A DNA stretch of 64,000 bases from an uncultured Acidobacteriota bacterium. GTDB taxonomy: Bacteria; Actinomycetota; Acidimicrobiia; Spongiisociales; ZC4RG35. Shown in pieces: positions 13,309 to 51,954 of this stretch. The notes beneath the pieces were generated by a model, which worked only from the letters and a program-made list of their open reading frames with translations, searched no databases and was not told the DNA's origin. Position 1 is the stretch's first letter. Every line of letters begins with the position of its first letter. Position numbers and translations under genes: made by a program. The stretch covers positions 1,486,765-1,550,764 of the forward strand of contig CAVVMG010000001.1 in assembly GCA_963749415.1 (NCBI GenBank). The letters are read 5' to 3'.

Positions 13309-14136
13309 GTGCATAGGGTGGCCGAGATCACGACCTTGAGTGGGGCCGTCGCCGAACTGGTGCGAGACGGGTCGATGGTCGCCATGGAGGGGTTCACCCA
13401 TCTGATCCCCTTTGCCGCCGGGCACGAAGTCATCCGGCAGGGGCGGCGGGACCTCACCCTGGTGCGAATGACCCCGGACGTCATATATGACCAATTGATC
13501 GGTATGGGTTGTGCCTCCCGGCTCATCTTCTCCTGGGGGGGCAATCCCGGTGTCGGGTCGCTTCATCGATTCCGGGACGCGGTGGAGAACGGCTTCCCGG
13601 TGCCTCTCGGCATCGAGGAGCACAGTCACGCGGCGATGGCTGCTCGTTACACGGCAGGCGCGTCCGGGTTGCCCTTTGCCGTGCTCCGGGGGTACCAGGG
13701 CTCCGACCTGATGGGGAAGACCGCGGTGGCCACCATCCAGAGCCCGTTCACCGACGAGCAACTCGCCGCGGTCCCCGCCCTGAACCCGGATGTCGCGATC
13801 ATCCATGCCCAACAAGCCGACCGCCGGGGGAATGTCGGGCTCTGGGGGATCACCGGGGTCCAGAAGGAGGCCGTTCTCGCCGCCCGGGCTTCGATCGTCA
13901 CCGTGGAGGAGATCGTCGACACCCTCGTGCCCCGTTCCCCAAACTGGGTGGTGCTCCCGTCGTGGGTGGTGACCGCGGTCTCCCTCAGCCCCGGTGGGTC
14001 GCATCCCTCCTATGCCATGGGTTACTCCACCCGAGACAATGCTTTCTACAAGGCGTGGGACGCGATCTCGAGGGATCGCGACGCCTTTCGAGACTGGATG
14101 GGCTCCAATGTCCTCGACGTTCCGAGGGGAGTCTGA
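13309..14136 (+). CDS. CoA-transferase subunit A (3-oxoacid / glutaconate CoA-transferase family I)
   Basis: 275 aa. Family-A pattern GFTHLIPFAAGHEVIRQG...SWGGNPGVG...VAIIHAQQADRRGNVGLWG. GTG start taken after the dioxygenase stop. The 527-aa ORF in the track is wrong-frame in its first half. Confidence 0.75.
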   Translation: MHRVAEITTLSGAVAELVRDGSMVAMEGFTHLIPFAAGHEVIRQGRRDLTLVRMTPDVIYDQLIGMGCASRLIFSWGGNPGVGSLHRFRDAVENGFPVPLGIEEHSHAAMAARYTAGASGLPFAVLRGYQGSDLMGKTAVATIQSPFTDEQLAAVPALNPDVAIIHAQQADRRGNVGLWGITGVQKEAVLAARASIVTVEEIVDTLVPRSPNWVVLPSWVVTAVSLSPGGSHPSYAMGYSTRDNAFYKAWDAISRDRDAFRDWMGSNVLDVPRGV

Positions 14137-14162
14137 CCATCGACGGCTACACCACCGACGAG

Positions 14163-14912
14163 ATGATGACGGTCACCGCCGCCAGGTTCCTCCGCAACGG
14201 CCAGGTGTGCTTCGTCGGCATCGGGCTCCCCAGCGAGGCGGCCAACCTCGCCCGTCTCTCTCATGCGCCGGACCTGGTCCTCATCTACGAGTCGGGGACG
14301 ATCGGCACCCGCCCCGAAGTCCTGCCCCTTTCCATCGGCGATGGGGAACTGGCGGAGAAGGCAGACACCGTGGTGTCGGTGCCGGAGATCTTCGGGTATT
14401 GGCTCCAGGGTGGGCGGGTCGACGTCGGTTTTCTCTCCGCGGCGCAAATCGACCGCTTCGGGAACCTGAACAGCACCGTGATCGGGCCCTACGACCAGCC
14501 GATCGTTCGTCTGCCCGGAGCGGGCGGTGCTCCCGAGATCGCCACCAATGCCCGCGAGGTGCTAGTCATGCTTCGCCAATCGACCCGCAGCTTCGTTGAG
14601 TCCGTCGACTTCGTGACCAGCCTCGGGTTCGGCAGGACCGGAGAGGGCAGGCCTCCCGGCGCCGGTGGCGGCCCCACCGTGGTGATCACTGACCTCGGGG
14701 TGTTGCGGCCCGACCCCGATGACCACGAGCTGACCCTGGTGGCAACACATCCCGGGGTGGAAGCCGGGGGCGTGGTGGCCAGCACCGGCTGGGAGCTCCG
14801 CATTGCCGACGACCTGGAGGTCAGCGTGCCCCCGACCGGGGACGAGCTCGGCATCCTGCGTGAACTGCTGGCGAAGACAGAGCGAGCACATTCGGGGCTC
14901 GGGCCGGCCTGA
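14163..14912 (+). CDS. CoA-transferase subunit B. The N-terminus is uncertain: the conserved sequence LTIDGYTTDEMM precedes the first ATG with no canonical start available.
   Basis: B-subunit pattern MTVTAARFLRNGQVCFVGIGLP...SGTIG...NLNSTVIG. First in-frame ATG is at 14163, but the upstream in-frame residues also look conserved. Confidence 0.7.
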   Translation: MMTVTAARFLRNGQVCFVGIGLPSEAANLARLSHAPDLVLIYESGTIGTRPEVLPLSIGDGELAEKADTVVSVPEIFGYWLQGGRVDVGFLSAAQIDRFGNLNSTVIGPYDQPIVRLPGAGGAPEIATNAREVLVMLRQSTRSFVESVDFVTSLGFGRTGEGRPPGAGGGPTVVITDLGVLRPDPDDHELTLVATHPGVEAGGVVASTGWELRIADDLEVSVPPTGDELGILRELLAKTERAHSGLGPA

Positions 14913-14918
14913 TCGCCG

Positions 14919-16265
14919 TCAGTGAGAGCCGGCGACTGCCAGCAGGTGCCACTCGCCCTCGATCCCCTTGAGGTTATGGACGCCTCGATCCTCGAAGGCG
15001 AGGTCGGAGCCGATCACCAGATCCTTGACCGTGCGGGAGACCAGGATCTCATCGGCATGGGCCTCGGCCATGATCCGGGCCGCAAGGTGCACGGTCATAC
15101 CGCCCACGTCTTCCCCCCTGACCTCGATCTCGCCGGTATGGAGCCCGGAGCGGATGGTCAACTCGTAGGGATGCAACCCCTCCCGGAAGCCGGTGGCGAA
15201 CCGAATCCCCCGACCCGGCCCGTCGAATGTGGCGAGCAAGCCGTCTCCGGTGCTCTTCACGTATCGACCCCCGTTGGCGGCGAGGAGGCGCCCGGCCAGG
15301 GCATCGTGCTCGTCCAGGACCTCTTTCCAGCGGGCATCGCCCCTCTCGGAGAGAAGGCGGGTGGAATCCACGATGTCGGTGTAGAGGACCGTGGCCAGGA
15401 CCCGATCGGCGGGTGCGGTCGGCCTCACCCCGGTGACGAACTCCTCGATGGCGTCGAGTGCCTCCTCGGCATGATCCCAATACAGTGGCCCGTCCGAGCC
15501 AGGCAGCTCCACCATCCGGGCGCCGTCGATGTGCTCGGCGATGTAGCGCCCTTGTTCGATCGGCATGAACCGGTACGAGGTCCGGTGCAAGACCAGTGTC
15601 GGCACGTGGATCGCGGGCAGCAGCGATCGGGCATCTGCGGTGAACATGGCGCGGAAGTACGCCGATGCGGCGGCCGGCCCCGCGATGGAGCGGGTCTTCT
15701 TGGCGTACCAATCCCGGAAACGAGTGTCGGTCGCCCGGCTCGGGACCTGCAGGATCACGTGCTGATCGGTGCCCCACCGGTCGGACATCGTCTCGCTCAG
15801 CTCCAGAGCGGCCTCCGGGCTCATCCCTTCCGGATAGTCCTCGGATGCCGTGTACTTGCTGCTGGTGTTGACCAACACCAGCGCTGCGGTCTGTTCGGGC
15901 CGGGTCGCCGCGAACAGCATCCCCATGGGACCCGCGTCGTAAGTGGCCACGATGGCGGCCTTCTTGCTTCCCACCGCATGCATCACGCAATCGAGCTCCT
16001 CCACGAACGACTCCCATGGAGGGAGGGCGTCGAGCGCTAGCGGATCTGAGGCACCGGTGCCCCGCCGGTCGAAGCGGATGACCCTGGCGAATGATGCGAG
16101 TCTCCGCAGGAACATCGCCGCCTGCGGGTCCTCCCAATCGGTGTCGAAGGCCCCGAAGCTGCCCGCGCTCAAGACCAGGTCTATGGATGATCCGTTGTCG
16201 GAGTCGAGGACTTCGTATGCGACCCGGTCCGCCCCCAACCGTGCATAACCGGTGCTGCGCTCCAC
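14919..16265 (-). CDS. Two-domain protein: N-terminal alpha/beta-hydrolase fold plus C-terminal class III adenylyl/guanylyl cyclase catalytic domain (M. tuberculosis LipJ/Rv1900c-like architecture)
   Basis: 448 aa. C-terminal ~160 aa carry cyclase-homology-domain motifs (VLYTDIVDSTRL..., VKSTGDGLLATF, GLHTGEIEV..., GMTVHLAARI). N-terminal ~270 aa have an alpha/beta-hydrolase-like layout (HVPTLVLHRTSY...). GTG start. Confidence 0.75.
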   Translation of the reverse strand: MERSTGYARLGADRVAYEVLDSDNGSSIDLVLSAGSFGAFDTDWEDPQAAMFLRRLASFARVIRFDRRGTGASDPLALDALPPWESFVEELDCVMHAVGSKKAAIVATYDAGPMGMLFAATRPEQTAALVLVNTSSKYTASEDYPEGMSPEAALELSETMSDRWGTDQHVILQVPSRATDTRFRDWYAKKTRSIAGPAAASAYFRAMFTADARSLLPAIHVPTLVLHRTSYRFMPIEQGRYIAEHIDGARMVELPGSDGPLYWDHAEEALDAIEEFVTGVRPTAPADRVLATVLYTDIVDSTRLLSERGDARWKEVLDEHDALAGRLLAANGGRYVKSTGDGLLATFDGPGRGIRFATGFREGLHPYELTIRSGLHTGEIEVRGEDVGGMTVHLAARIMAEAHADEILVSRTVKDLVIGSDLAFEDRGVHNLKGIEGEWHLLAVAGSH

Positions 16266-16544
16266 TGCTTCGAGGATAGCCCCGCGCCCTTGTCCTGCCT
16301 CAGGGCCCGTCGACCCACGAAAGAAGTTCGGGGCGACGCTGTCGTCGCCCCGAGGTTGCCCCTGGGAGGAGGGATCTGTTGTAGTCGACGGGCTATGACC
16401 GTGACACCTTCTTTGTAACCGACGCAGGTGACAGCCGGGTTAACGGGCGCTGTCGATCGGCGGAACCTTGGTCCGGGCCTGGATCGATAATTCGACGCTG
16501 GTAGCTGCCTGTCCCTCTCTAACCTCGCCCTCACCGGTCCTCCA

Positions 16545-18143
<1,599 letters not shown>

Positions 18144-37223: not shown

Positions 37224-38696
37224 GTGGCATCTGAGATCGCAACCACCCCTCCCTTGCGTTGGGAGTATGCCGGGTCCCGGGAGTCGGCCGATATTGCAAC
37301 CATCGATGACCGCTACGGGCTCTTCATCGACGGCGAGTTCGTCGCACCCAAGTCGGGAAGGCATTTCCCGACAATCAACCCGGCGACCGAGGAGCCGTTG
37401 GCCGAAGTGGCCGAGGCGGGTGCGGAGGACGTCGATGACGCGGTCACTGCTGCCCGTCGGGCCTTCACCCAGGTATGGGAGCCGATGGAGCCTTCGGAAC
37501 GAGCCAAGTACGTCTTCCGCATCGCTCGCATGATCCAGGAGCGCTCCCGGGAGCTGGCAGTGGTGGAGACCCTGGACGGGGGCAAGCCGATCAAGGAGGC
37601 CCGGGACGTCGACCTGCCCCTGGTGGCGGGCCACTTCTTCTACTACGCCGGTTGGGCCGACAAGTTGGAGTACGCCTTCCCCGGGATCCGGCCCCGACCA
37701 CTCGGCGTGGCCGGCCAGGTGATCCCCTGGAACTTCCCGTTGCTGATGCTCGCCTGGAAGGTGGCGCCGGCGCTGGCTGCCGGGAACACCGTCGTCCTCA
37801 AACCGGCGGAGACCACCCCGCTGACCGCTCTGATCGTCGCCCAGATCGCCGCCGAGGCCGGGTTGCCACCCGGTGTGCTCAATGTGGTCACCGGAGCCGG
37901 AGGCACCGGGGCGGCGGTGGTGGGGCATCCCGATGTCGACAAGGTCGCCTTCACCGGATCCACCGCGGTGGGCAAATCGATCCAGAGCCAGCTCGCCGGC
38001 AGCCACAAGAAGCTGACATTGGAATTGGGGGGCAAGGCGGCGCATGTGATCTTCGACGACGCCCCCCTCGATCAGGCGATCGAGGGTGTAATCAACGGGA
38101 TTTTCTTCAACCAGGGCCACGTCTGTTGCGCCGGGAGCCGACTTCTCGTCCAGGAAAGCATTCACGACCGTTTCGTGGACAAGCTCAAGCGCCGATTGTC
38201 CACGCTGCGGGTCGGCGACCCGATGGACAAGAACACCGACGTCGGAGCGATAAACAGCCGGGCCCAGCTGGAGAAGATCAACGAGCTGGTCGAGTCGGGG
38301 CTGGATGAGGGGGCCGAGATGTTCCAGCCCGACTGCGTCCTCCCCGACCGCGGGTTCTTCTTCAAGCCGACGCTGTTCACCAATGTCGCCCAATCCCACC
38401 GGATAGCCCAGGAGGAGATCTTCGGCCCGGTGCTCTCGATCCTCTCCTTCCGCACCCCCGAGGAGGCGGTGGAGAAGGCGAACAACACCCCATATGGTCT
38501 CTCGGCCGGGGTCTGGACGTCGAAGGGCTCACGGATCCTGTGGATGGCCGACCGCCTCCAGGCCGGCGTGGTCTGGGCCAACACCTACAACAAGTTCGAT
38601 CCCGCCTCGCCGTTCGGGGGATACAAGGAGTCGGGCTTTGGCCGTGAGGGCGGGCGCCACGGCCTGCTCGCCTATCTCGACTGGGACGAGTCGTGA
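37224..38696 (+). CDS. NAD(P)-dependent aldehyde dehydrogenase
   Basis: 490 aa with GxxxxG in VTGAGGTGAAVVGHP, LELGGKA, catalytic Cys in FFNQGHVCCAGSRL, and EEIFGPV. GTG start 3 nt after the deoC stop. Confidence 0.9.
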   Translation: MASEIATTPPLRWEYAGSRESADIATIDDRYGLFIDGEFVAPKSGRHFPTINPATEEPLAEVAEAGAEDVDDAVTAARRAFTQVWEPMEPSERAKYVFRIARMIQERSRELAVVETLDGGKPIKEARDVDLPLVAGHFFYYAGWADKLEYAFPGIRPRPLGVAGQVIPWNFPLLMLAWKVAPALAAGNTVVLKPAETTPLTALIVAQIAAEAGLPPGVLNVVTGAGGTGAAVVGHPDVDKVAFTGSTAVGKSIQSQLAGSHKKLTLELGGKAAHVIFDDAPLDQAIEGVINGIFFNQGHVCCAGSRLLVQESIHDRFVDKLKRRLSTLRVGDPMDKNTDVGAINSRAQLEKINELVESGLDEGAEMFQPDCVLPDRGFFFKPTLFTNVAQSHRIAQEEIFGPVLSILSFRTPEEAVEKANNTPYGLSAGVWTSKGSRILWMADRLQAGVVWANTYNKFDPASPFGGYKESGFGREGGRHGLLAYLDWDES

Positions 38697-39541
38697 GCCG
38701 GCTCGATGTTCGCAAGACCTACAAGCTGTACATAGGCGGCAAGTTCCCCCGCTCCGAGTCGGGACGCTCCTATCCGGCGCTCGCCGCCGACGGTGAGGTG
38801 CTGGCCCGGGTCGCACAGGGGAGTCGCAAGGACCTCCGCGACGCGGTGCGGGTGGCACGGGAAGCCGGCCCGGGCTGGGCCGGGACCAGCGGGTACAACC
38901 GGGGCCAGGTCCTGTACCGGGTCGCAGAGACGCTGGAGGACCGGGGTGGGACCTTCGTCGAGCAGCTCCAGGCGGTGGGAGTCGGCAAGAGGGCGGCTGC
39001 TGCAGAGGTTGGAGCTGCCGTCGATCGCATGGTCTGGTACGCAGGATGGGCCGACAAATTCGCCCAGATCTACGGCAACCTCAACCCGGTGGCCGGTCCC
39101 TTCTTCAACATCTCGGCGCCCGAGCCCACGGGGGTGGTCGGTGTGATCGCTCCCGAAGAGCCTTCCCTGCTCGGCCTGGTCTCGGAGTTGGCGCCGGTGC
39201 TGGTGCCGGGAAACACGGCTGTGGTCCTCGCCTCGGAGCGCATCCCGATGCCGGCGATCACGTTCACCGAGGTTCTCAACAGCTCGGACGTCCCCGGTGG
39301 AGTCGTCAACGTGCTCACCGGCCATAAGGACGAGTTGATCCCCTGGCTCGCCGACCACATGGATGTCAACGCCATCGCCGCCGGAGGGGCCACATCCGAG
39401 CAGGCGATGAGGGTCCAGGAAGGAGCGGTGCACAACGTGAAGCGGGTGGTGATGCCTTCCGGGAACGGCTCCACCCAGAGCCCGTATCGCATCGCTGCGT
39501 TCACCGAGACCAAGACGGTCTGGCACCCAAAGGGTCTGTGA
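38693..39541 (+). CDS. ALDH-superfamily-like protein lacking the catalytic domain (NAD-binding half plus an ALDH-type C-terminal tail only)
   Basis: 282 aa. Residues 1-235 align with the N-terminal/NAD-binding half of an ALDH (..WAGTSGYNRGQVLYRVAETLEDRG..PGGVVNVLTG..). It stops where ELGGK and the catalytic Cys should begin, then ends with an ALDH-like tail SPYRIAAFTETKTVW. GTGA overlap with the preceding ALDH. Confidence 0.6.
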   Translation: MSRLDVRKTYKLYIGGKFPRSESGRSYPALAADGEVLARVAQGSRKDLRDAVRVAREAGPGWAGTSGYNRGQVLYRVAETLEDRGGTFVEQLQAVGVGKRAAAAEVGAAVDRMVWYAGWADKFAQIYGNLNPVAGPFFNISAPEPTGVVGVIAPEEPSLLGLVSELAPVLVPGNTAVVLASERIPMPAITFTEVLNSSDVPGGVVNVLTGHKDELIPWLADHMDVNAIAAGGATSEQAMRVQEGAVHNVKRVVMPSGNGSTQSPYRIAAFTETKTVWHPKGL

Positions 39542-42997: not shown

Positions 42998-43001
42998 TGC
43001 G

Positions 43002-43878
43002 ATGGAGTCTGATGTCATCCCGGTCACTGTTCCGCTCGACCTGAGGCGGGCCCTGCGGCCGCTCCACGGCTGGTTCGCAAAGGACGGCTGGTGGAAGACC
43101 GCGAGGACACCTGAGGGCAGCGGCTCCCTTCGCATCTCCCGCACCACCCAGGGGTTGGTGGGGCACGCCTGGGGCGACGGCAGCAATTGGCTGCTCGCCC
43201 GGCTTGGTTCGTTTGCCGGCCTCGACGACGACCCGACCCGGTTCGAGACCGATCATCCATTGGTCGGTGAGCTTCATCGCCTCCACCCCGGAATGCGCTT
43301 CGGAAAGAACGGCCTCGTCTTCGACGCCCTGGTCACTGCAATCACGGGCCAGAAGGTCACCGGCGCCGAGGCCGCTGCGGCGGGTGCCGGGCTGCGACGA
43401 GTTTTTGCCGACGATGCGCCGGGGCCCAATTCCGGGCTCCGCCTACCACCCGACCCCGACCGCATGGCGGCGGCCCCATATTGGGCCTACCACGAGCTGC
43501 ACCTGGAGCGGCGCCGGGCCGAGACGTTGCGCCGGGTCGCCGACCGACCATGCCGCCATCGGGATGCTGGGCGAGTTGCCGGTTGGCGAGGCCGCCGCCC
43601 GTCTCGCCGCGTATCCCGGAGTCGGGCCGTGGACGGTGGCCAAGACCCTGGTGGTGTCGCACGGCGATCCGGATCAGGTCGAGGTCGGCGACTTCCACGT
43701 CAAGCACATCGTGGTCCACCATCTGACGGGCCGGCCCCGTGGCTCCGACGAGGAGATGCTCGCACTTCTCGAGCCATTCCGCCCCCATCGGGGCCGGGTC
43801 ATCCGCCTGCTCCACACCCTCGGTCACGAGCCGAAGTTCGGTCCGAAGGTTCGGGCCCGGGACTTCACCCGAAGCTGA
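43002..43878 (+). pseudogene. Second AlkA-like HhH-GPD DNA glycosylase gene, frameshifted near 43530-43560
   Basis: Frame 1: MESDVIPVTVPLDLRRALRPLHG...NGLVFDALVTAITGQKVTGAEAAAAGAGLRRVF...HLERRRAETLRRVADRP then nonsense. Frame 2 continues AAIGMLGELPVGEAAARLAAYPGVGPWTVAKTLVV...GDFHVKHIVV... to the stop at 43878, which overlaps the P450 ATG. Frames offset by 1 nt. Confidence 0.6.
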
Positions 43879-45029
43879 TGATCGATCCGGCCAGCATCAC
43901 CCTTACCGAACTCGAGGACGACCCTCATCCCATCCTCGCCGACCTGCTCCGTCACTATCCGGTGTGCCACATACCGAGCATGGACATGTGGCTAGTCACC
44001 CGCTGGGATGACGTGGTCTACGTCTGCGAGCACCCCGAACTGTTCTCGGCCAACACCGACCCGAGTTGGCTGCGCGACTGTCTCGGGGAGAACATGCTCA
44101 CCCTCGACGGCGAGAGGCACGACCGGCTTGCCAACGGGATGCGTCCTTCCTTCTCCGGGACCGAAGCGGGAAAGGCGGTGAGGGAGTCGCTGCCGGCGAT
44201 GCTCGACGGTCTCATCGACGAGTTTGTGGCATCCGGCTCCACCGACCTCATGGTCTCCTATGCCGAGCCGCTGGCCAACCTGACATTGCTCAATGCATTG
44301 GGGATGACCTCGGTGGCGTGGCAGGAGCTTGCCGGGTGGTGCCGCGGGGTGATCACCGGCATCTCCAACTTCGAGAACGACCAGGAGAAGGCAGACCTCG
44401 CCGCGCTGGCCCACCGAGAGCTCGGGGAAGCCCTGGATCGGGAGCTGGGCCGACTGTCAGAGGAACCCGACGAAAGCGGCCTGTCCCATTTCCTGCGCGC
44501 CGGGTTCGCCCGGGACGAGATAGTCAACAACGTACGGCTCATGATCTCCGGAGGGATCAATGAGCCACGCGACGGTGTTGGCCTCGTCATGTATGTCCTC
44601 CTCAGCGATCCGGCGCTGTTGAGCCAGGTCGGTGAGGACCGAGCAGTCCTGCGCAAGGTGATCGAGGAGACTCTTCGACTCCACACACCGGTGGGGACGG
44701 CTACCCGCCAGGCGACGCGTGAACTGAAGCTGTCTGGGGTGTCTATCCCCGAAGGGTCGGTGGTCGCCGCCGTGCTCACTGCGGCCAACCGAGACCCGTC
44801 GCGTTGGTCGGAGCCGAACCGGTTCCGACTTGATCGTGGTGAGGGCTCTCACATCGCTTTCTCGCTCGGTGAGCATCGCTGCCTCGGCGAATGGCTGGCC
44901 CGCCAGCAGGTGAGGATCGGGGTGGAACGGCTCCTCGACCGACTGCCGGGGATCCGGCTAACCGGCGAGGTGAAGCTCCACGGTTTTGAGTTTCGGGGCC
45001 CGGTCGCCCTGGAGGTCGCTTGGGGTTGA
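43878..45029 (+). CDS. Cytochrome P450
   Basis: 383 aa with the heme loop FSLGEHRCLGEWLA, the EXXR-type ETLRLHTP and I-helix-like MISGGINEP. ATG overlaps the alkA-like stop (TGATG). Confidence 0.88.
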   Translation: MIDPASITLTELEDDPHPILADLLRHYPVCHIPSMDMWLVTRWDDVVYVCEHPELFSANTDPSWLRDCLGENMLTLDGERHDRLANGMRPSFSGTEAGKAVRESLPAMLDGLIDEFVASGSTDLMVSYAEPLANLTLLNALGMTSVAWQELAGWCRGVITGISNFENDQEKADLAALAHRELGEALDRELGRLSEEPDESGLSHFLRAGFARDEIVNNVRLMISGGINEPRDGVGLVMYVLLSDPALLSQVGEDRAVLRKVIEETLRLHTPVGTATRQATRELKLSGVSIPEGSVVAAVLTAANRDPSRWSEPNRFRLDRGEGSHIAFSLGEHRCLGEWLARQQVRIGVERLLDRLPGIRLTGEVKLHGFEFRGPVALEVAWG

Positions 45030-45032
45030 CGG

Positions 45033-46265
45033 TCAGTAGTAAGGGAGGTACTCCCGGATCTCCCAGTCGGTGGTGTGAGTGGAGAAGCGCTCCCATTCGG
45101 CCCGCTTGACGGCGAGGAAACCCTCGACATACGCAGGGGAGAAGGCCTCCACGAATTCCTTGTCACGCTCCAGCGCATCGAGCGCCGCCCCCAGGTCGGG
45201 CGGGCAACAGGTGTCGGTGTCGGCCCCGGTGATGCAGTCCTGGCTCTCGGCGGGCGGGCACTCCATCTCGAGGCGCACCCCGCGCAGTGCGGACACCAGG
45301 GTGGCAGCCGCAGCCAGGTGCAAGGAGGCGGCACCGTCGGCGAGCCGATGCTCGAGCCGGATGCCGGAGTCGGTGGCCGGGGGTACGCGAAGCGCCACAC
45401 CGCGATGGTCGTAGCCCCAGTTGGCGTAATAGCCGTTGAGTGAGGCTGGTTGGAGCCGCTTGTACGCGTTGACCGTCGGTGCCACCAGGGCGGTCATCGA
45501 AACGTGGTCATTGACGATCCCGGCGATGCATTGCCGGGCCAGCTCGCTGAGTCGATCAGGGGCGGAGTCGTCGATGAGCGCATTGCGGCCCTGATCGTCG
45601 ATGAGGGAGACGTTGACATGGATGCCACTCCCTCCGCGCTCGGTGATCGGCTTGCCCATGAATGCCAGGAGGAGTCCGCGCTTGGCCGCGATCTCCTTGG
45701 CCATCACCTTGAACAGAAAGGCGTCGTCGCACGCCTCGAGGGCCTCTCCGTAACGAAGTGTCAGTTCGAACTGCCCGTCGTCATACTCGGAATTGACCGA
45801 CTCCAGCTCCAGGCCGACCTCCCGGGCGGTCTCCATGATCTCCTGGATCGTGCCCGTGGGGTCGACCGCGGTGCCGGTGCCGTAGACGTAGGAGCCGGGG
45901 GTATATATCGGCTGCCATCCCCGGTCACCGTCTGGCTCGAAGAGGAAGGCTTCGAGCTCGAAGCCGACCATGGGATTCAACCCCAGCTCTCGCCACTCGC
46001 CGACGACACGCTCCAGGATCGAGCGGGGGGCGAGCTCGACCGGTGCCCCGTTCTTGGAGATCGAAGCCACCACGACACCGGTGCCCGGCTCCCACCCGGG
46101 CCGGACATCGTCCATGGAGAAGCGCGCCTCGACATCGGGGAAGCTCTCATGGTGGGCACCGGGATGGGGGATCATCACCCGGTTGAGCTGGAGGGAGAAC
46201 AGAGCCACGCAGTGATTGCTGCCCTCCGCAGCTCTTGCGCCGGAGAGATACTTCCCTCGAGCCAA
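45033..46265 (-). CDS. Glutamine-synthetase-like gamma-glutamyl ligase (GS catalytic domain, PuuA/GlnA3/GlnA4/IpuC-like). Conserved in-frame coding continues upstream to ~46484 without a canonical start codon.
   Basis: GS catalytic-domain motifs (FELEAFLF, NSEYDDGQFELTL, GSGIHVNVSL, NAYKRL, GYDHRGVALRVP). Upstream of the TTG at 46265 the same frame is open for 73 more codons and encodes a GS N-domain-like sequence (...SYDRVRFLWPDHLGLARGKYL), but with no ATG/GTG/TTG. Confidence 0.8.
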   Translation of the reverse strand: MARGKYLSGARAAEGSNHCVALFSLQLNRVMIPHPGAHHESFPDVEARFSMDDVRPGWEPGTGVVVASISKNGAPVELAPRSILERVVGEWRELGLNPMVGFELEAFLFEPDGDRGWQPIYTPGSYVYGTGTAVDPTGTIQEIMETAREVGLELESVNSEYDDGQFELTLRYGEALEACDDAFLFKVMAKEIAAKRGLLLAFMGKPITERGGSGIHVNVSLIDDQGRNALIDDSAPDRLSELARQCIAGIVNDHVSMTALVAPTVNAYKRLQPASLNGYYANWGYDHRGVALRVPPATDSGIRLEHRLADGAASLHLAAAATLVSALRGVRLEMECPPAESQDCITGADTDTCCPPDLGAALDALERDKEFVEAFSPAYVEGFLAVKRAEWERFSTHTTDWEIREYLPYY

Positions 46266-46518
46266 TCCGAGATGATCCGGCCAGAGGAACCGAACCCGGT
46301 CGTAACTCGCCTCGCTCAGAACCTTCTCCTGTGGGACTCGATGGTTAGTGGCCCGCCGCAGAAATACTGGTGGCGTCTCTCCGGCCCTCGACGCCCCTGG
46401 CCGTGTCGAAGTGCTCGCCGCAGCTCCCCGGCTGCGACTGCGCGCTTCTCCTTGCCAGATGACGCCGATGGCTCGGAGACACCCTCACCCTATTTCTCCG
46501 ACAGACCACTCAGAAACA

Positions 46519-46536
46519 GTATCAACCCCTTGATAT
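46519..46536. promoter_or_regulatory. Inverted repeat GTATCAA-CCCC-TTGATAT 10 nt upstream of the GATase start codon
   Basis: 6/7 matching arms in the divergent intergenic region between the GS-like and GATase genes. Confidence 0.3.
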
Positions 46537-46545
46537 TCTCGCCCG

Positions 46546-47235
46546 ATGCGGGCACTGGTCATCGAACACGACCCGCTGTCCACCCCGGAGCGGGTCGGGG
46601 AGCACTTGGAGCGACGAGGGTTCAGCCTCGAGCATTTCGTCGTGGTCGAGGACATCGACCACCCGGATGTCAGCGCAACCTTTCCCGAGAACGGAAGCCA
46701 CGACCTGGTGGTGCTGATGGGCGCCCCCTGGTCGGTTTACGACCCGGTGATGAAGGGCTGGGTGGGCCCGGAGCTCGACTTCATTCGGCACAATCAGGAA
46801 CGCGGGGTCCCCGTGCTCGGAATCTGCTTTGGGGGCCAAGCCCTCTCCGCCGCACTCGGCGGCTCCGTCAGACATGCCGGCCGCCCGGAATACGGGTGGG
46901 GGAGCATCGAGCCCACTGTCGACCAGATCGCCGGCGGCCCCTGGTTCCAGTACCACCACGACGAGTTCACACTCCCTCCGGGCGCAACCGAGCTCGCCCG
47001 CAACCAGTCGGGAGTCCAGGCGTTTCGCTCGGCCCGGGCTCTTGGCGTCCAATTCCATCCCGAGATGACCGCCGGCCTGTTGGGATCCTGGTGCGAGGTC
47101 GACGGCTGTTCGGAGATGGTGGAAGCCGGGTTGGACGTTGACCAGGTCATCGAGCAGAGCCGCACCCTCGAGGTCGACACCCAGCCCGACCTGGAGCGGA
47201 TGCTCGACTGGTTCCTCGACGACTTTGCAAGCTGA
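46546..47235 (+). CDS. Class I glutamine amidotransferase-like protein (GATase1/peptidase C26; candidate gamma-glutamyl hydrolase)
   Basis: 229 aa with the GATase1 pattern VLGICFGGQALSAALGG (Cys nucleophile) ... FQYHHDE ... GVQFHPE (His). Confidence 0.8.
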   Translation: MRALVIEHDPLSTPERVGEHLERRGFSLEHFVVVEDIDHPDVSATFPENGSHDLVVLMGAPWSVYDPVMKGWVGPELDFIRHNQERGVPVLGICFGGQALSAALGGSVRHAGRPEYGWGSIEPTVDQIAGGPWFQYHHDEFTLPPGATELARNQSGVQAFRSARALGVQFHPEMTAGLLGSWCEVDGCSEMVEAGLDVDQVIEQSRTLEVDTQPDLERMLDWFLDDFAS

Positions 47236-47237
47236 GG

Positions 47238-48494
47238 ATGACCGGTCCGCCCCCGGGAGTCGGCATCGACCTCACCGACCCCGATCTCTGGGAACGCGGG
47301 GTTCCGCACGCCGAGCTTCACAGGCTTCGTGACCAAGCTCCCGTTGCCTGGGCAGAGCATCCGGGCCCGCACCGCGGTTTCTGGGTGGTGACCCGCCACG
47401 AGGATGTCTTGTCGGTGTCACGCGATGCGGAGACCTTCTCGTCCCGGGATGGTGTGATCTCTTTGGAAGACCTCGACCCCGATCAGATCGATGCGCGGCG
47501 GTCGATGCTCGAAGAGGACCCCCCGCGCCACCGCGAGCTCCGTGCACTCACCTCCGCACACTTCACTCCGAGGGCGGTCCGGGTCCACGAGGGCTACATC
47601 CGCCAGCTCGCGGTGGATGCGATCGAGTCGGCGCTGGAGAAGGGGGACTGTGACCTGGTGTCGACACTCAGCGAGCGGGTGCCGATCCGGGTGCTGGGGC
47701 GCATCCTCGGAGTCCCAGACCAGGACGTGGACGAGCTGGTCCGCCTCGGCAATCAGATGATCGGTGCGGACGATCCGGAATACGGGAATCCGGGCGACCC
47801 ACCAATCCCGGCCGGCGACATGAGACTGCTCCCGTTCGGACATCCTGCCGCGCTGGAGGCCTTTGAGATGGCCTGGCGGATCACCAGGGACCGGGGCCCA
47901 GCAGACGGCACCGACGTTCTGGGAGCTCTGGCCCGGGGCCAGGTGGACGGCGTGCCGCTTACCGATCGCGAGCTCGGCACCTACTTCGTGCTCCTGGTGA
48001 TCGCCGGGAATGAAACGACCCGGCACAGCATCTCCGCCGGAGTGGCCGCCCTCGCTGCCAATCCTGAGGAGTGGAGGCGCCTCCGCACGCGGTCCGTCGA
48101 CCCGACTCGGGCCGCCGACGAGATTCTGAGATGGGCGACGGCGATCCACTTCCACCGTCGGATCGCCACCAGGGACACGAGCCTTCGCGGCGTGGAGATT
48201 GCAGCCGGTGACAAGGTGGCGGTGTACTTCGCATCGGCGAACTTCGACGAACGGGCGTTCTACGAGCCGTTCCGGTTCGATGTCGGCCGGTCACCCAATG
48301 AGCACGTCGCGTTCGGGCGCGGCGGCCCTCATTACTGCCTGGGAGCGCATCTCGCCAGGCTCGAAGTGCGGGTGGTCCTCGAGGAGCTCGCAGCTCGGGT
48401 CGCCTCGATCGAATTGACCGGAGAGCCGAGCCGGCTCCGTTCCAACCACATCAACGGCATCAAGCACCTTCCCGCCCGTCTCACGGCAGCCTGA
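47238..48494 (+). CDS. Cytochrome P450
   Basis: 418 aa with the heme loop FGRGGPHYCLGAHLA, the EXXR-type EILRWAT and I-helix AGNETT. ATG 3 nt after the GATase stop. Confidence 0.9.
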   Translation: MTGPPPGVGIDLTDPDLWERGVPHAELHRLRDQAPVAWAEHPGPHRGFWVVTRHEDVLSVSRDAETFSSRDGVISLEDLDPDQIDARRSMLEEDPPRHRELRALTSAHFTPRAVRVHEGYIRQLAVDAIESALEKGDCDLVSTLSERVPIRVLGRILGVPDQDVDELVRLGNQMIGADDPEYGNPGDPPIPAGDMRLLPFGHPAALEAFEMAWRITRDRGPADGTDVLGALARGQVDGVPLTDRELGTYFVLLVIAGNETTRHSISAGVAALAANPEEWRRLRTRSVDPTRAADEILRWATAIHFHRRIATRDTSLRGVEIAAGDKVAVYFASANFDERAFYEPFRFDVGRSPNEHVAFGRGGPHYCLGAHLARLEVRVVLEELAARVASIELTGEPSRLRSNHINGIKHLPARLTAA

Positions 48495-48578
48495 GATCCT
48501 CTGCACCATGTGATCGTTAGGACGCCAACGATCGCGTTCGATTGCTACTTTTCCGGCGACCGGACCAGAGGAGGATCC

Positions 48579-50024
48579 ATGTCGGACGGCCCCACTCCGA
48601 GCGAAGTTGGTTTCGAGCGGGCGGCGATCGGCTTTCCCACTGCCTTGGCGGCTGCGGTCGGATTGATCATCGCCGGGTCGGTCCTGCTCACCGCACAGAC
48701 CGGCTACGGAGCCGGGGGATACATCTTCGCCTGGGCCATCCTCATCGCCTACGTCTTGATGCTGGCGCAATCGGCGAGCTTCTCCGAGGCCGCCGGGATC
48801 CTGCCCACCGCAGGGTCGGTCTACGACTACATCGCCGCCGGCATGGGGCGGTTCTTCGCCATAGCCGGGACCCTTGCCGCCTATCTGGTGGTCCACGTGT
48901 TCGCCGGCACCGCGGAGACCGCGACCGCGGGCGTTTTCGCCTCGTTCAACTTCACCTTCCTCGAGCAATACCAGGCCGGGGGCTCCTGGTGGATCGGGGT
49001 CGCGCTGATGGTGATCTTCGCGGTGGTCAACATGCTCGGGATCCGGCCTTTCGCAAAGGCGGAGATCGCGATGACCGCGGTCATGTGGGTCACCTTGGTC
49101 GTCTTCGGGCTGCTGGGGACCTTGCAGCCCAAGTCGACCGATATCAGTGGGATGTTCGGCGAGTCGGCAGTCGGGACCGACCTGACCGCCATCTTGAGCA
49201 TGACCGGCCTCGCCCTGTTCCTTTTCGTCGGGGTCGAGTACGTGACACCGCTCGCCGCAGAGCTCAAGGAGCCGGCTCGCACCATCCCCCGCGCGATGTA
49301 TGTCGGCCTGACCGCGGTGGCGGTAGCGATGTTCCTCTATGGCACGGGTGTCGCCCGCCAGGTCGAGAACGTCGACCTGGGCGACGGGACGTTGATCCTC
49401 GATACCCCGCTCGCCATCCCGGCCTATGCCGAGGCGGTGCTCGGCGACTTCGGAAGGATCTGGTTCGGGATCGCGGTCCTCCTCGCCTCGGCAACCACCC
49501 TCAATACCCTGCTCGCCGGAGTGCCTCGCATCTTCTACGGGATGGCCAAGGACGGCACGCTGCCCAAGGTCTTCGCCTATCTCCATCCCCGCTACAAGGA
49601 GCCCTGGGTCGGAATCATCCTGGTGGCTCTCATTGGGATCGTGGGGGCGATCTGGATCGACGGTGACGTTCCTTCGATCATCAGCCTGATCCTGGCCGCG
49701 GTTCTGGCCTGGATCTTCAGCTACGTCCTGGTCGATATCTCGGTGATGGTGCTGAGGGCCCGGCGACCCGACCTGGCCAGGCCCTACCGGAGCCCTCTGT
49801 ATCCACTACCCCAATTGCTGGCGATTGCCGGGATGCTGGTGGCCGGGTGGTACGTCACACCTCCCTACCTCACCCGGTCGGACATATACACCCCGTTCGG
49901 GATCATGCTCGGAGCATGCGCCCTGTATGCCCTGATCTGGACATACGGCGTACAGAGGATCAATCCGTGGAAGCCGGTCGAGCCCGAGACACTGCTCGCG
50001 GAGGAGGGTGTCTCAGGTTCGTGA
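48579..50024 (+). CDS. APC-superfamily amino acid/polyamine permease (12 TM)
   Basis: 481 aa polytopic protein with strong SD GGAGGA 5 nt upstream of the ATG at 48579. The ORF in the track starts 69 nt earlier. Confidence 0.85.
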   Translation: MSDGPTPSEVGFERAAIGFPTALAAAVGLIIAGSVLLTAQTGYGAGGYIFAWAILIAYVLMLAQSASFSEAAGILPTAGSVYDYIAAGMGRFFAIAGTLAAYLVVHVFAGTAETATAGVFASFNFTFLEQYQAGGSWWIGVALMVIFAVVNMLGIRPFAKAEIAMTAVMWVTLVVFGLLGTLQPKSTDISGMFGESAVGTDLTAILSMTGLALFLFVGVEYVTPLAAELKEPARTIPRAMYVGLTAVAVAMFLYGTGVARQVENVDLGDGTLILDTPLAIPAYAEAVLGDFGRIWFGIAVLLASATTLNTLLAGVPRIFYGMAKDGTLPKVFAYLHPRYKEPWVGIILVALIGIVGAIWIDGDVPSIISLILAAVLAWIFSYVLVDISVMVLRARRPDLARPYRSPLYPLPQLLAIAGMLVAGWYVTPPYLTRSDIYTPFGIMLGACALYALIWTYGVQRINPWKPVEPETLLAEEGVSGS

Positions 50025-50590
50025 CCGGGGCGAGCCGGGTCGGCCGCCTTCCCCGCTCCTACCGATCGGGGAGGCTGCTCGGACTCCTGGCCAATGATTT
50101 TCCGGGGCACGGCCTCGAGCGCCTCGGGCCCGGACGAGGGCGCTTCGTTCCCGTCGGGGAGGGCCCGGTGATCGAGGTTCGGGAACGGGTCGACCGGCGC
50201 TTTCTGGGCCACACCGAGATCGCCCAATTCCTGCTCAGCGTCGATGTGGCACCCGGCTCGCCGGCACGGATCGAGGTGGTCCACACCGGGAGGCTCAAGA
50301 GGCAGGGCGTCGAGCTGGCGGTAGTCGTCGGCGACGAACAGGTCCGGGGTCTGGCCGGGCGGATCTCCAACGATGGTGCTTTCTCCGCCCCGGGTCTGGC
50401 GCTCGACTTCACCAGGTTCGACCTGGACCGCTCGGCAAGCCAATGGTCGGTGACCGTCGAGCTCATGGGTGCCAGCTTCGTGTCGCTCGCCCTGCCGCCG
50501 ATGCGGAGCTACATCCGCCTCCACCAGGACCAGATGGAGGCACTGGTCGAAGTTCTCACCGCCCTCGAGGGCCACCTGGCCCGCAATTGA
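50021..50590 (+). CDS. Hypothetical protein (189 aa), translationally coupled to the permease
   Basis: GTG overlaps the permease stop (GTGA). Protein-like composition, no family recognised. Confidence 0.45.
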   Translation: MTGASRVGRLPRSYRSGRLLGLLANDFPGHGLERLGPGRGRFVPVGEGPVIEVRERVDRRFLGHTEIAQFLLSVDVAPGSPARIEVVHTGRLKRQGVELAVVVGDEQVRGLAGRISNDGAFSAPGLALDFTRFDLDRSASQWSVTVELMGASFVSLALPPMRSYIRLHQDQMEALVEVLTALEGHLARN

Positions 50591-50609
50591 CCACAGGTAG
50601 CCTGCCTCG

Positions 50610-51017
50610 ATGATCGAGTATCGGGTGGGCAGCGACGTCGACCTCGACGAGGTGATCGACCTCTATGTCGATTCCACTCTTGGTGAGCGACGCCCGGTGG
50701 GGGAGAGGGATCGGATGGCCACGATGCTGGCCGAGGCCGATCTGGTGGTGTCCGCCTGGGACGGGGATCAATTGGTCGGCATCTCGCGGTCGGTGACCGA
50801 CTGGGTATACGCCACGTACCTCTCGGATCTGGCGGTGCGGCTGGACTACCAGAAGATGGGCATCGGCCGCGAGCTGGTGCGGCGCACCCGTCAGGAGACG
50901 CCTCGAGCGACCGTGATCCTCCTCGCCGCCCCGAAGGCGGTCGACTACTACCCGAAGATCGGGATGACCCAGCACCACAGCGCCTGGGTCCTCCTTCCCG
51001 GCGAAGAGCCGGCCTGA
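50610..51017 (+). CDS. GNAT-family N-acetyltransferase
   Basis: 135 aa with the acetyl-CoA-binding motif LAVRLDYQKMGIGRELVRR. Confidence 0.8.
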   Translation: MIEYRVGSDVDLDEVIDLYVDSTLGERRPVGERDRMATMLAEADLVVSAWDGDQLVGISRSVTDWVYATYLSDLAVRLDYQKMGIGRELVRRTRQETPRATVILLAAPKAVDYYPKIGMTQHHSAWVLLPGEEPA

Positions 51018-51027
51018 GCCGGCCGGG

Positions 51028-51954
51028 TCACTCCTCGAGCCAGGCCACGATCAGGTCGCCAACGAACTGGGGCAGATACATCTCGTTGTGATGGGCGCCC
51101 TCTACCGCCTCGACCAGGGCTTCGGAACCCGAGTCGTTGAGCGCATCTGCGAAGTCGATGGTGAAGGAAGGAGCGATGAAGCCGTCTTCCTCGCCGTACA
51201 TCAGCAACGAGCTCAAGCCGGGGTTGAGGCCGATGAGGTTCATCGGGTTCCCCGCCTCCCAGGCTTCGGGAACCTGAGCCGGCCCGCCGCCGAAGAAGGG
51301 GTACATCAGGACCCCGAGTCGCGTCACGTCATAGGGCCCGGCCAGGCCCACCAGGCGGTCGGGAATCCAGGGCCCGGGCAGAGTGCACGACCCGCTGTGA
51401 CTGCCGCCGTCGAGCGCTGCGACCGCCGCCAGATGAGCACCGGCAGAGTGCCCGAGGACAGCCACCGACCCATCTGCGTCCGGATGGGTGATGGCGAACC
51501 CGATGGCACAGGTGACATCGTCCACCGCAGCCGGGTAGCCGGGCGTCTCGCCGGCGAGTTGGTAGGCAGTGTTCACCGTCAGGTAGCCGCGGTCGGTGAG
51601 GAACCGAGCCAAGGGCCTCATGAGCGAAGGGTCACCCGCTACCCAGCCGCCACCGTGGACCAGCACCACGGCCGGAAACGGGGGAACTCCGTCGGGGATC
51701 ATCACCTCAGCGTCTATCTCGAAATCCGGAGCGACCGAGGTGGTGGTGGTTGCAAACGTGCTCGTGGTGGTCGCAGCGGTTGTCGTTGCAACCATGGAGG
51801 TGGTCCCGCCCTCCGTGGTCGAGGTGGCCGCCGGCGGCAGGGAGGTCGTGCTGGTCGGCCCGGACCCGACGCCGCCGGCGCAGGACACCAGCGCCAGCGC
51901 CGCGAGCGACGAGATCAGGCGAGCAGTGATGCCGCTTCCCGATCCACGTACCAC
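51028..51954 (-). CDS. Alpha/beta-hydrolase-fold esterase/lipase lipoprotein
   Basis: Candidate signal peptide RLISSLAALALVSCAGG, a Thr-rich linker, then HGGGW...GHSAGAHLA (GxSxG nucleophile). Start set at the in-frame GTG; the Arg/Gly-rich upstream part of the 370-aa ORF in the track is rejected. It would overlap the 3' end of pgl by ~40 nt. Confidence 0.65.
   Translation of the reverse strand: MVRGSGSGITARLISSLAALALVSCAGGVGSGPTSTTSLPPAATSTTEGGTTSMVATTTAATTTSTFATTTTSVAPDFEIDAEVMIPDGVPPFPAVVLVHGGGWVAGDPSLMRPLARFLTDRGYLTVNTAYQLAGETPGYPAAVDDVTCAIGFAITHPDADGSVAVLGHSAGAHLAAVAALDGGSHSGSCTLPGPWIPDRLVGLAGPYDVTRLGVLMYPFFGGGPAQVPEAWEAGNPMNLIGLNPGLSSLLMYGEEDGFIAPSFTIDFADALNDSGSEALVEAVEGAHHNEMYLPQFVGDLIVAWLEE

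Follow-up and report, generated by a model that had tools for sequence, protein, structure and literature searches.

A gene cluster in a 64-kb stretch of DNA from an uncultured bacterium of the Acidimicrobiia (NCBI GenBank assembly GCA_963749415.1, contig CAVVMG010000001.1, positions 1,486,765 to 1,550,764) is interpreted here, with somewhat better than even confidence, as a module for amine uptake and gamma-glutamylation in which the glutamylated amine would be oxidized by cytochrome P450 and the glutamyl tag then removed. The whole stretch is termed the window; it has a G+C content of 63-69%, and positions are counted from its first letter. Gamma-glutamylation is an established means of amine handling in bacteria, but it has been characterized for few substrates and few enzyme lineages. 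An earlier note on this DNA had proposed a gamma-glutamyl-amide pathway encoded by five genes, an idea supported by the active-site, phylogenetic and comparative evidence given below, with the chemistry remaining a prediction. Pfam detects all five genes (P450, Gln-synt_C, glutamine amidotransferase [GATase], P450 and APC permease) where the note had placed them. The gene set was incomplete, however, as the DUF3156 gene coupled to the permease had been overlooked. The features of the locus are as follows.

43878-45029, + strand: P450b, a cytochrome P450 of 383 amino acids (aa); Pfam p450
45033-46319, - strand: glutamine synthetase (GS)-like ligase, candidate gamma-glutamyl-amine synthetase; Gln-synt_C, E 2e-82; first canonical start TTG at 46265
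46320-46545, no strand: intergenic region separating the GS-like gene from the divergent GATase row; promoter/operator presumed from position only
46546-47235, + strand: stand-alone class-I GATase-like protein, 229 aa, candidate gamma-glutamyl-amide hydrolase; PF00117, E 3e-17
47238-48494, + strand: P450a, of the CYP125 clan, 418 aa, candidate glutamylated-amine hydroxylase; Pfam p450
48579-50024 (open reading frame from 48510), + strand: APC-superfamily permease, 481 aa, candidate monoamine importer; AA_permease_2, E 2e-37
50021-50590, + strand: DUF3156 protein, probable permease accessory; PF11354, E 4e-27
50610-51017, + strand: GNAT acetyltransferase, probably part of the syntenic backbone; Pfam

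P450a and P450b are the sole P450 genes of the window. The ATG of P450a lies 2 nt past the GATase stop codon. On the other side, P450b and the GS-like gene are convergent, with stop codons 3 nt apart.

The GS-like protein matches Gln-synt_C strongly and yet falls below all NCBIfam cutoffs, including those of the GlnA, GlnT and PuuA equivalogs. The GlnA model (TIGR00653) gives 194.6 bits where the cutoff is 429.15, the PuuA model (NF045547) 202 where it is 650, and the type III GS/GmaS model 228 where it is 470. Among solved structures, the top match is Bacillus subtilis GS (E 2.7e-49), followed by glutamate-methylamine ligase (3e-48), with weaker matches to NpaA1 (8wwu, E 6.5e-36) and PA5508 (4hpp). 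PA5508 was considered as the closest structural relative and rejected, as its E value of 3e-27 places it further off than GS or GmaS. The active site was compared in a MAFFT alignment with Escherichia coli GlnA, E. coli PuuA and Paenarthrobacter aurescens IpuC. The ligands of metal, ATP and glutamate are retained (E129, E131, E212, E220, H269, R321, R339, R344, E357 and R359, GlnA numbering). The ammonium-site residue Y179 is replaced by V (V in PuuA, T in IpuC) and the E327 flap residue by L (Y in PuuA, W in IpuC), and N264 and S53 are replaced by G and H respectively, the same kind of change being found in PuuA and IpuC. The D50 column reads E, at an uncertain position, as the N-terminal alignment is gappy. 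Loss of residues of the Asp50'/Tyr179/Glu327 type is typical of glutamyl-organic-amine synthetases (PMC11335346).

A neighbour-joining tree (numpy implementation, 300 bootstraps, a small sample of 16 sequences) places the GS-like protein in a clade of 100% support with Acidimicrobiia proteins (clade B, below), a Novosphingobium plasmid protein and a Ruegeria TM1040 megaplasmid protein. Support is 89% once two Streptomyces plasmid GS-like proteins join. GlnA and GlnT form a group (92%) without the GS-like protein; IpuC and PuuA are placed elsewhere, and the GS-like protein does not nest on their side. Going by the cutoffs, active site and tree together, the protein is not a true GS, and it is not orthologous to IpuC or PuuA either. 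It is most likely a member of the glutamyl-organic-amine synthetase kind, for which ligation of glutamate to an organic amine is predicted. Grouping with bona fide GlnA, which the earlier note had named as one result that would overturn its proposal, was thus not observed.

The start of the GS-like gene is unusual. The reading frame is open upstream of TTG 46265 and encodes the conserved family N-terminus YDRVRFLWPDHLG, but there is no ATG, GTG or TTG for 73 codons upstream of this TTG. A Shine-Dalgarno (SD)-like sequence, GGAGAAGG, precedes a CTG at 46319, and this non-canonical codon is probably the start. Possibly, a sequencing error is the reason for the missing canonical start.

The product of the divergent gene has the motifs GICFGGQ and FHPE in its translation, i.e. 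the GxCxG and HPE signatures of the GATase Cys-His-Glu triad. It stands alone at 229 aa, with no fused synthase domain, and has the triad expected of a gamma-glutamyl-amide hydrolase; a domain of a biosynthetic amidotransferase, which the earlier note had named as another refuting outcome, is not what is found. Among NCBIfam models, the protein comes closest to two stand-alone 'glutamine amidotransferase' families, PRK06490 and PRK07053, without reaching their cutoffs. Peptidase_C26 (PF07722) is matched over 33 residues only, at 32.8 bits. The protein is 31% identical to a Ruegeria GATase that adjoins a P450-GS pair, and has no BLAST match at 1e-5 to the GATases of P. aurescens TC1.

P450a displays the motifs AGNETT, EILRW and FGRGGPHYCLG, and its top PDB matches are CYP125 (E 6e-84), then CYP124, CYP142 and CYP153. 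It does not qualify as a CYP125 family member by identity of at least 40% together with a sterol-catabolic context: it is 38% identical to CYP125 (7qke, trimmed alignment), and no steroid or sterol catabolic genes are present among the open reading frames of 34-57 kb checked with Pfam. Identity to CYP125MRCA is 50%, but CYP125MRCA is an artificial, reconstructed and consensus-like sequence. Identities are 40-48% to GS-adjacent P450s of other lineages, compared with 27-29% to P450s of the Ipu (isopropylamine) pathway. A neighbour-joining tree, in which the CYP125 and CYP125MRCA sequences were transcribed from HMMER output and may contain small errors, shows one clan with CYP125 and unresolved deep nodes (bootstraps 16-32%).

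P450b is of a different type. Its best PDB matches are 6g71 (E 8e-56), SyoA (8u09, 5e-46) and GcoA (about 1e-37). The heme motif FSLGEHRCLG is present, and the I-helix sequence GGINEP aligns with GGLNEP of 6g71 and GGLQEP of SyoA, so that N-E falls over Q252-E253. In SyoA, Q252-E253 is an amide-acid pair in the I-helix, where an acid-alcohol pair is usual (PMC11842817). P450b thus has the unusual amide-acid pair of the CYP255/CYP1232 O-demethylases; it resembles these aromatic O-demethylases, and O-demethylation may be its reaction. The enzymes of this type that match best (GcoA, AgcA and SyoA; 6g71) share the I-helix pair with P450b, whereas no gene for a GcoB-type reductase adjoins P450b. 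A P450b gene is also found directly downstream of the GS-like gene in eight other loci (L002, L006, L011, L020, L021, L024, L031 and L042; locus numbers refer to the collection described below) and slightly further downstream in L036 and L040. In the window, a conserved hypothetical gene (43045-43875, + strand) sits between an FGGY kinase gene and P450b. Its L005 homologue matches HhH-GPD (DNA glycosylase-like) weakly (E 0.005). P450b is apparently an insertion, found in only some genomes, that separates the hypothetical gene from the GS-like gene.

For the permease, the likeliest start is ATG 48579, which has the SD sequence GGAGGA 6 nt upstream, the strong SD remarked on earlier, and gives a protein of 481 aa that matches its homologues in length. 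The GTG start of the DUF3156 gene overlaps the permease TGA (GTGA), an arrangement of translational coupling. Klebsiella and Salmonella APC permeases that likewise precede an overlapping DUF3156 gene share 49-51% identity with the permease of the window, compared with 21-27% for PuuP and an Ipu-type permease. The permease-DUF3156 pair is conserved in Acidimicrobiia and on Klebsiella, Salmonella and Pseudomonas plasmids. Its loci outside Acidimicrobiia are:

L100, 5842-6420
L101, 4359-6441
L102, 1832-7411
L103, 1687-7417

Two of the three enterobacterial clusters (Salmonella and Klebsiella aerogenes) have the pair beside genes for phenylacetaldehyde dehydrogenase (feaB) and an FAD-dependent oxidoreductase, and that of K. 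aerogenes has a monoamine regulon regulator nearby. The Klebsiella variicola cluster has no aromatic-amine genes. In Pseudomonas aeruginosa, the DUF3156 gene adjoins feaR and is beside a two-piece permease of 52-55% identity. From this context, the DUF3156 protein seems to assist the permease in the catabolism of aromatic monoamines; it has instead been proposed as an antitoxin resembling chaperones of the type III secretion system (2026 paper, PMC13092808). A cupin gene also adjoins the pair in Salmonella and K. aerogenes.

Contigs of 185,579 species representatives, with one genome for each species, were scanned and yielded at least 578 relatives of the GS-like protein. Neighbourhoods were compared for the best 80 of these loci, by BLAST of their open reading frames. 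All 80 are from metagenome-assembled genomes (MAGs), nearly all of them Acidimicrobiia or generic Actinomycetota, and the closest relatives (74-95% identity) are found only in Acidimicrobiia MAGs. Clade A consists of proteins at least 74% identical to that of the window, and 23 of its species loci have at least 6 kb on both sides. The divergent GATase is near the GS-like gene in 19 of the 23, while the other genes are less frequent: P450a in five, P450b in three, any P450 in seven, the permease in five and DUF3156 in six. Thus the GS-GATase pair is the core and the P450s, permease and DUF3156 are accessory. Conservation of the neighbourhood, which the earlier note had left as a check, therefore holds for the ligase and GATase and, in four other lineages, for the ligase and a neighbouring CYP125-clan P450, but not for the P450s and permease within clade A. 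The same GATase-P450a-permease-DUF3156-GNAT row is present in the two closest relatives, L008 (95%) and L005 (91%). The GNAT gene was considered as a pathway member and rejected, because it is retained where the accessory genes are gone: it keeps its place in relatives without P450, permease and DUF3156 and at times without GATase (e.g. L013, L016 and L026). In L006 (6262-8419), from a long-read MAG, the homologues of P450a and of the permease are both broken into two open reading frames, from either assembly frameshifts or decay of accessory genes. Locus L002, in an Acidimicrobiia MAG, has bacterial microcompartment shell genes (BMC, EutN/CcmL and CsoS1D_N) with an aldehyde dehydrogenase (ALDH) gene at 13785-17293, ∼5 kb from the GS-like locus.

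Clade B proteins are 58-63% identical to the GS-like protein of the window, and their 14 informative loci have a remarkably uniform gene content. A pyridoxal phosphate (PLP) decarboxylase, an ADC-family protein and an ALDH are encoded in all 14, FAH and a LigB-type dioxygenase in 13 each, a P450a-type P450 in 12 and a PuuD-like C26 hydrolase in 11. The cluster (L081, 3882-16209; also L051, L066, L083, L084 and others) encodes the PuuD-like hydrolase, an HpaG-like FAH, a CYP125-clan P450, the PLP decarboxylase, the GS-like protein, an MppR-like ADC, an Na/H exchanger, an HpaE-like ALDH, MarR and an HpaD-like LigB, and appears to represent an undescribed pathway. Genes beside the GS-P450 pair in relatives score best, below cutoff, as homologues of HpaD, HpaE and HpaG, the homoprotocatechuate meta-cleavage set. 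Locus L003, a metagenomic contig of clade A, joins both gene sets: it has flavin monooxygenase, ALDH, ADC, FAH, DUF3156, permease, GATase, ferredoxin, GS, P450, MarR, LigB, CMD and MetE-like genes and a P450 of the P450b type, with ferredoxin, GS and P450 consecutive. Clades A and B are paralogous modules that can coexist, as MAG JBAPYG01 holds both a clade A locus (L042) and a clade B locus (L077).

Among plasmid records, the nearest GS-like relatives outside Acidimicrobiia are in three uncharacterized clusters, and in each a CYP125-clan P450 is adjacent, as in the window. On Novosphingobium pABRDHK22, a P450-GS-ALDH row (GS 45% and P450 40% identical to those of the window) is accompanied by genes for ADC, FAH, ALDH, a 2Fe-2S ferredoxin, catechol 1,2-dioxygenase and MarR. 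The Ruegeria TM1040 megaplasmid has a GATase gene divergent from P450-GS, the same trio as in the window (GS 38%, P450 39-40%, GATase 31%). On a Streptomyces canus plasmid, GS-P450 (37% and 44%) is divergent from genes for ferredoxin, reductase, ADC, ALDH, 3,4-dihydroxyphenylacetate 2,3-dioxygenase, FAH and TetR. None of the three has the permease-DUF3156 pair of the window, while those of Novosphingobium and S. canus add ADC-like, FAH, ALDH, ring dioxygenase and ferredoxin/reductase genes. Placement of the P450 gene varies: it precedes GS in Novosphingobium and Ruegeria and follows GS in S. canus and L003; in the window it comes after the GATase gene, and clade B has the order P450/decarboxylase/GS. 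Persistence of the GS-P450 linkage while gene order shifts is the pattern expected of a functional couple, and recurrence of the arrangement in related genomes and across phyla points to more than chance adjacency. A Rhodococcus pyridinivorans plasmid (L098, 5944-8624) has two tandem GS-like genes in a row with SDR, DUF1116 and hydrolase genes, a further uncharacterized setting for genes of this kind.

What is seen directly is the gene content, the catalytic motifs, the placement in clades and the conservation of linkage; from these a four-step scheme is proposed, its chemistry, step order and substrate all being predictions. The APC permease, with the coupled DUF3156 protein, would import a monoamine, likeliest an arylalkyl amine of the tyramine, phenylethylamine or (methoxy)dopamine type. 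The GS-like ligase would use ATP and glutamate to form the N-gamma-glutamyl amide. P450a, and perhaps P450b as well, would then oxidize the glutamylated intermediate, with electrons from a ferredoxin and reductase encoded outside the window. Finally, the class-I GATase would cleave the amide to give glutamate and the oxidized amine or a later product. The output of the cluster itself may be oxidized amine and glutamate, or a lower pathway may be encoded elsewhere in the genome.

The substrate, which the earlier note had left as an amine or amino compound taken up by the permease, can now be narrowed to a probable class, and an aromatic monoamine such as tyramine is tentatively suggested. Three independent leads point in this direction, i.e. 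the permease homologues linked to feaB and feaR, the O-demethylase likeness of P450b, and the HpaD/E/G-like genes in relatives. By tblastn, the window has no ADC, FAH, LigB or PLP decarboxylase genes, and ring-cleavage genes are absent too; the suggestion of an aromatic amine therefore draws on the relatives and the permease. A more speculative proposal, which is somewhat doubtful, is that the module in the window provides the import arm of a catabolic route, so far undescribed, that occurs in several phyla. An arylethylamine (e.g. tyramine or methoxytyramine), imported or made by a linked PLP decarboxylase, would first be glutamylated, and P450 could then convert it to a catechol by hydroxylation or O-demethylation; HpaD-, HpaE- and HpaG-like enzymes and the MppR-like ADC could carry out extradiol cleavage of homoprotocatechuate type without cyclization of a free amine onto the product of ring fission, and glutamate would be removed last by the GATase or a PuuD-like hydrolase. 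A literature search, which was not exhaustive and covered DUF3156, gamma-glutamylated tyramine and dopamine, ADC-like enzymes and the combination of GS, P450 and homoprotocatechuate, yielded no account of such a pathway.

Several known systems follow a similar logic. An established precedent is the Ipu pathway of Pseudomonas sp. KIE171, which, as summarized in PMC6776027 (citing de Azevedo Wasch et al. 2002), converts isopropylamine to L-alaninol with a permease, the ligase IpuC, a P450 with ferredoxin and reductase, and an amidotransferase-like hydrolase. The same summary states that the P450 hydroxylates gamma-glutamyl-isopropylamide, as the earlier note had correctly suggested. The note had also considered the four-gene combination not to be a named pathway, and in this it was mistaken: Ipu clusters hold the same four functions as the window, i.e. 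permease, GS-like ligase, P450 and GATase-like hydrolase. The Ipu-type layout is seen on pTC1 and pTC2 of P. aurescens TC1 and on Microbacterium pYJNG. The proteins are nevertheless of other lineages. The Ipu ligase is 33-34% identical to that of the window and belongs to a separate clade, the P450 is of another clan, the permease is 21% identical (Ipu type), and the hydrolase is C26/PuuD-like where that of the window is GuaA-like. The ferredoxin, reductase, SDR, alcohol dehydrogenase and ALDH genes of the pTC1 and pYJNG clusters are missing from the row in the window, which adds DUF3156 and a second, O-demethylase-like P450. Measured against Ipu, therefore, the window has a GATase-like hydrolase and a permease that are non-orthologous, and has neither an IpuC-orthologous ligase nor a three-component P450 system. 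The cluster is a variant on the Ipu logic built, to judge by the sequences, from different enzyme lineages, and is not an Ipu orthologue.

The Puu pathway of E. coli (PuuP, PuuA, PuuB, PuuC and PuuD) resembles the window in its divergent ligase/hydrolase pair and APC-type importer. PuuA shares the change of Y179 to V but is 28% identical to the window ligase, which is well short of a PuuA equivalog. The PuuB oxidase and PuuC dehydrogenase have no counterparts in the window, where P450s stand in their place; the nearest ALDH gene, at a distance of 6 kb, belongs to another syntenic block. An aromatic amine is likewise acted on by a GS-like ligase and a GATase-like protein before ring oxidation in the AtdA1/TdnQ (aniline) and NpaA1 (1-naphthylamine) systems (PMC11335346). 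These oxidize by a Rieske dioxygenase, whereas a P450 is predicted to do so in the window.

Several observations weigh against the interpretation of the cluster as a complete glutamylation and P450 oxidation module. The earlier note had found no redox-partner genes beside the P450s, and tblastn of the whole 64 kb with three ferredoxins and two reductases from related clusters (E 1e-4) likewise finds none. The absence of the ADC, FAH, LigB, PLP decarboxylase and ring-cleavage genes is a further point. The GATase is GuaA-like and not of the PuuD/C26 type found in Puu, Ipu and clade B. The P450 tree did not recover the GS-linked P450s as one clade distinct from the sterol hydroxylase CYP125, at the low bootstraps given above, and P450b is absent from the closest relatives L008 and L005. 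In addition, the GS-GATase pair evidently does not need a P450 beside it to function. This raises the question of whether the GS-like ligase and GATase alone form the functional unit, a Puu-like couple that adds and removes glutamate in the detoxification or scavenging of polyamines or other amines, with the P450s being unrelated arrivals in a variable locus. The clade A counts (GATase in 19 loci, any P450 in seven) and the closest relatives without P450b agree with such an explanation, as do L001, L002 and L007, where the same slot holds HxlR, molybdopterin oxidoreductase and nitroreductase genes. However, it is judged unlikely, as the GS-like clade is found beside CYP125-clan P450s in four other lineages and in varied gene orders, only 2 nt separate the GATase stop and P450a start, ferredoxin, GS and P450 form a row in L003, and no PuuB- or PuuC-like oxidase or dehydrogenase is adjacent.

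Other explanations have less in their favour. It is improbable that the gamma-glutamyl unit serves in biosynthesis, as a protecting or carrier group while the P450s tailor an amine-derived secondary metabolite. The PLP decarboxylase of clade B, which would make the amine in the cell, and the MppR-like protein agree with such a role, but the window holds an importer and not a decarboxylase, no nonribosomal peptide synthetase, polyketide synthase, export or resistance genes are nearby, the genes linked to it in other genomes are of a catabolic kind (HpaD-, HpaE- and HpaG-like, MarR), and the locus is widespread and near-core in many Acidimicrobiia species. There is a similarly slight chance that the cluster is an Ipu orthologue that converts isopropylamine or short alkylamines to an amino alcohol. 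The four functions are the same, and the best named match on annotated plasmids is ipuC of P. aurescens TC1 (33.6%), but the low identities of ligase, P450a and permease, the separate ligase clade and the missing redox and dehydrogenase genes argue otherwise. That P450a is an ordinary CYP125-type hydroxylase of sterol or lipid side chains, unrelated to amines, is very improbable: CYP125 provides its best PDB matches and the tree does not separate the two, but P450a is under the usual 40% family line and is without sterol genes in the checked region, and its nearest relatives found all adjoin GS-like genes. It is hardly credible that the GS-like protein is a true, divergent GS whose glutamine is used by the GATase. 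B. subtilis GS is its top PDB match, and an 80% split in the neighbour-joining tree puts its clade on the same side as GlnA/GlnT, but it is far under the GlnA cutoff, is outside the GlnA/GlnT group and has E327, Y179, N264 and S53 replaced.

The distinct and populous GS-like clade defined here, with its many Acidimicrobiia relatives and its alphaproteobacterial and Streptomyces plasmid members, is repeatedly linked to CYP125-clan P450s. If the substrate is indeed an aromatic monoamine, the cluster would provide abundant uncultured Acidimicrobiia of soil and water with a function in biogenic-amine turnover, would give a role to the DUF3156-permease pair, and would add new P450s acting on N-protected arylalkyl amines, a matter of interest to biocatalysis. 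Should no more than the generic interpretation be true, the cluster is one more pathway of the Ipu/Puu type.

At the level of regulation, no regulator gene is found in the cluster; relatives carry MarR, GntR or TetR. Over 43000-51500, scans for promoters and terminators, for inverted repeats and for Rfam families did not rise above background, so no regulator site or riboswitch can be claimed. The divergent intergenic region has no family-supported open reading frame, sigma-70-like site, inverted repeat or Rfam match, and with no recognizable signal its promoter/operator role is presumed from its position. A gene for a 61-aa ferredoxin, absent from the window, fills the equivalent space in L003 and L036.

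Upstream of the cluster, a full-length ALDH gene (37224-38696, + strand) is followed, with overlapping stop and start codons, by a gene for a 282-aa protein (38693-39541, + strand) that matches the first half of the ALDH profile only. The pair of 490-aa and 282-aa proteins is also found in L005, which indicates that the short ALDH-like gene is conserved and is not a fragment.

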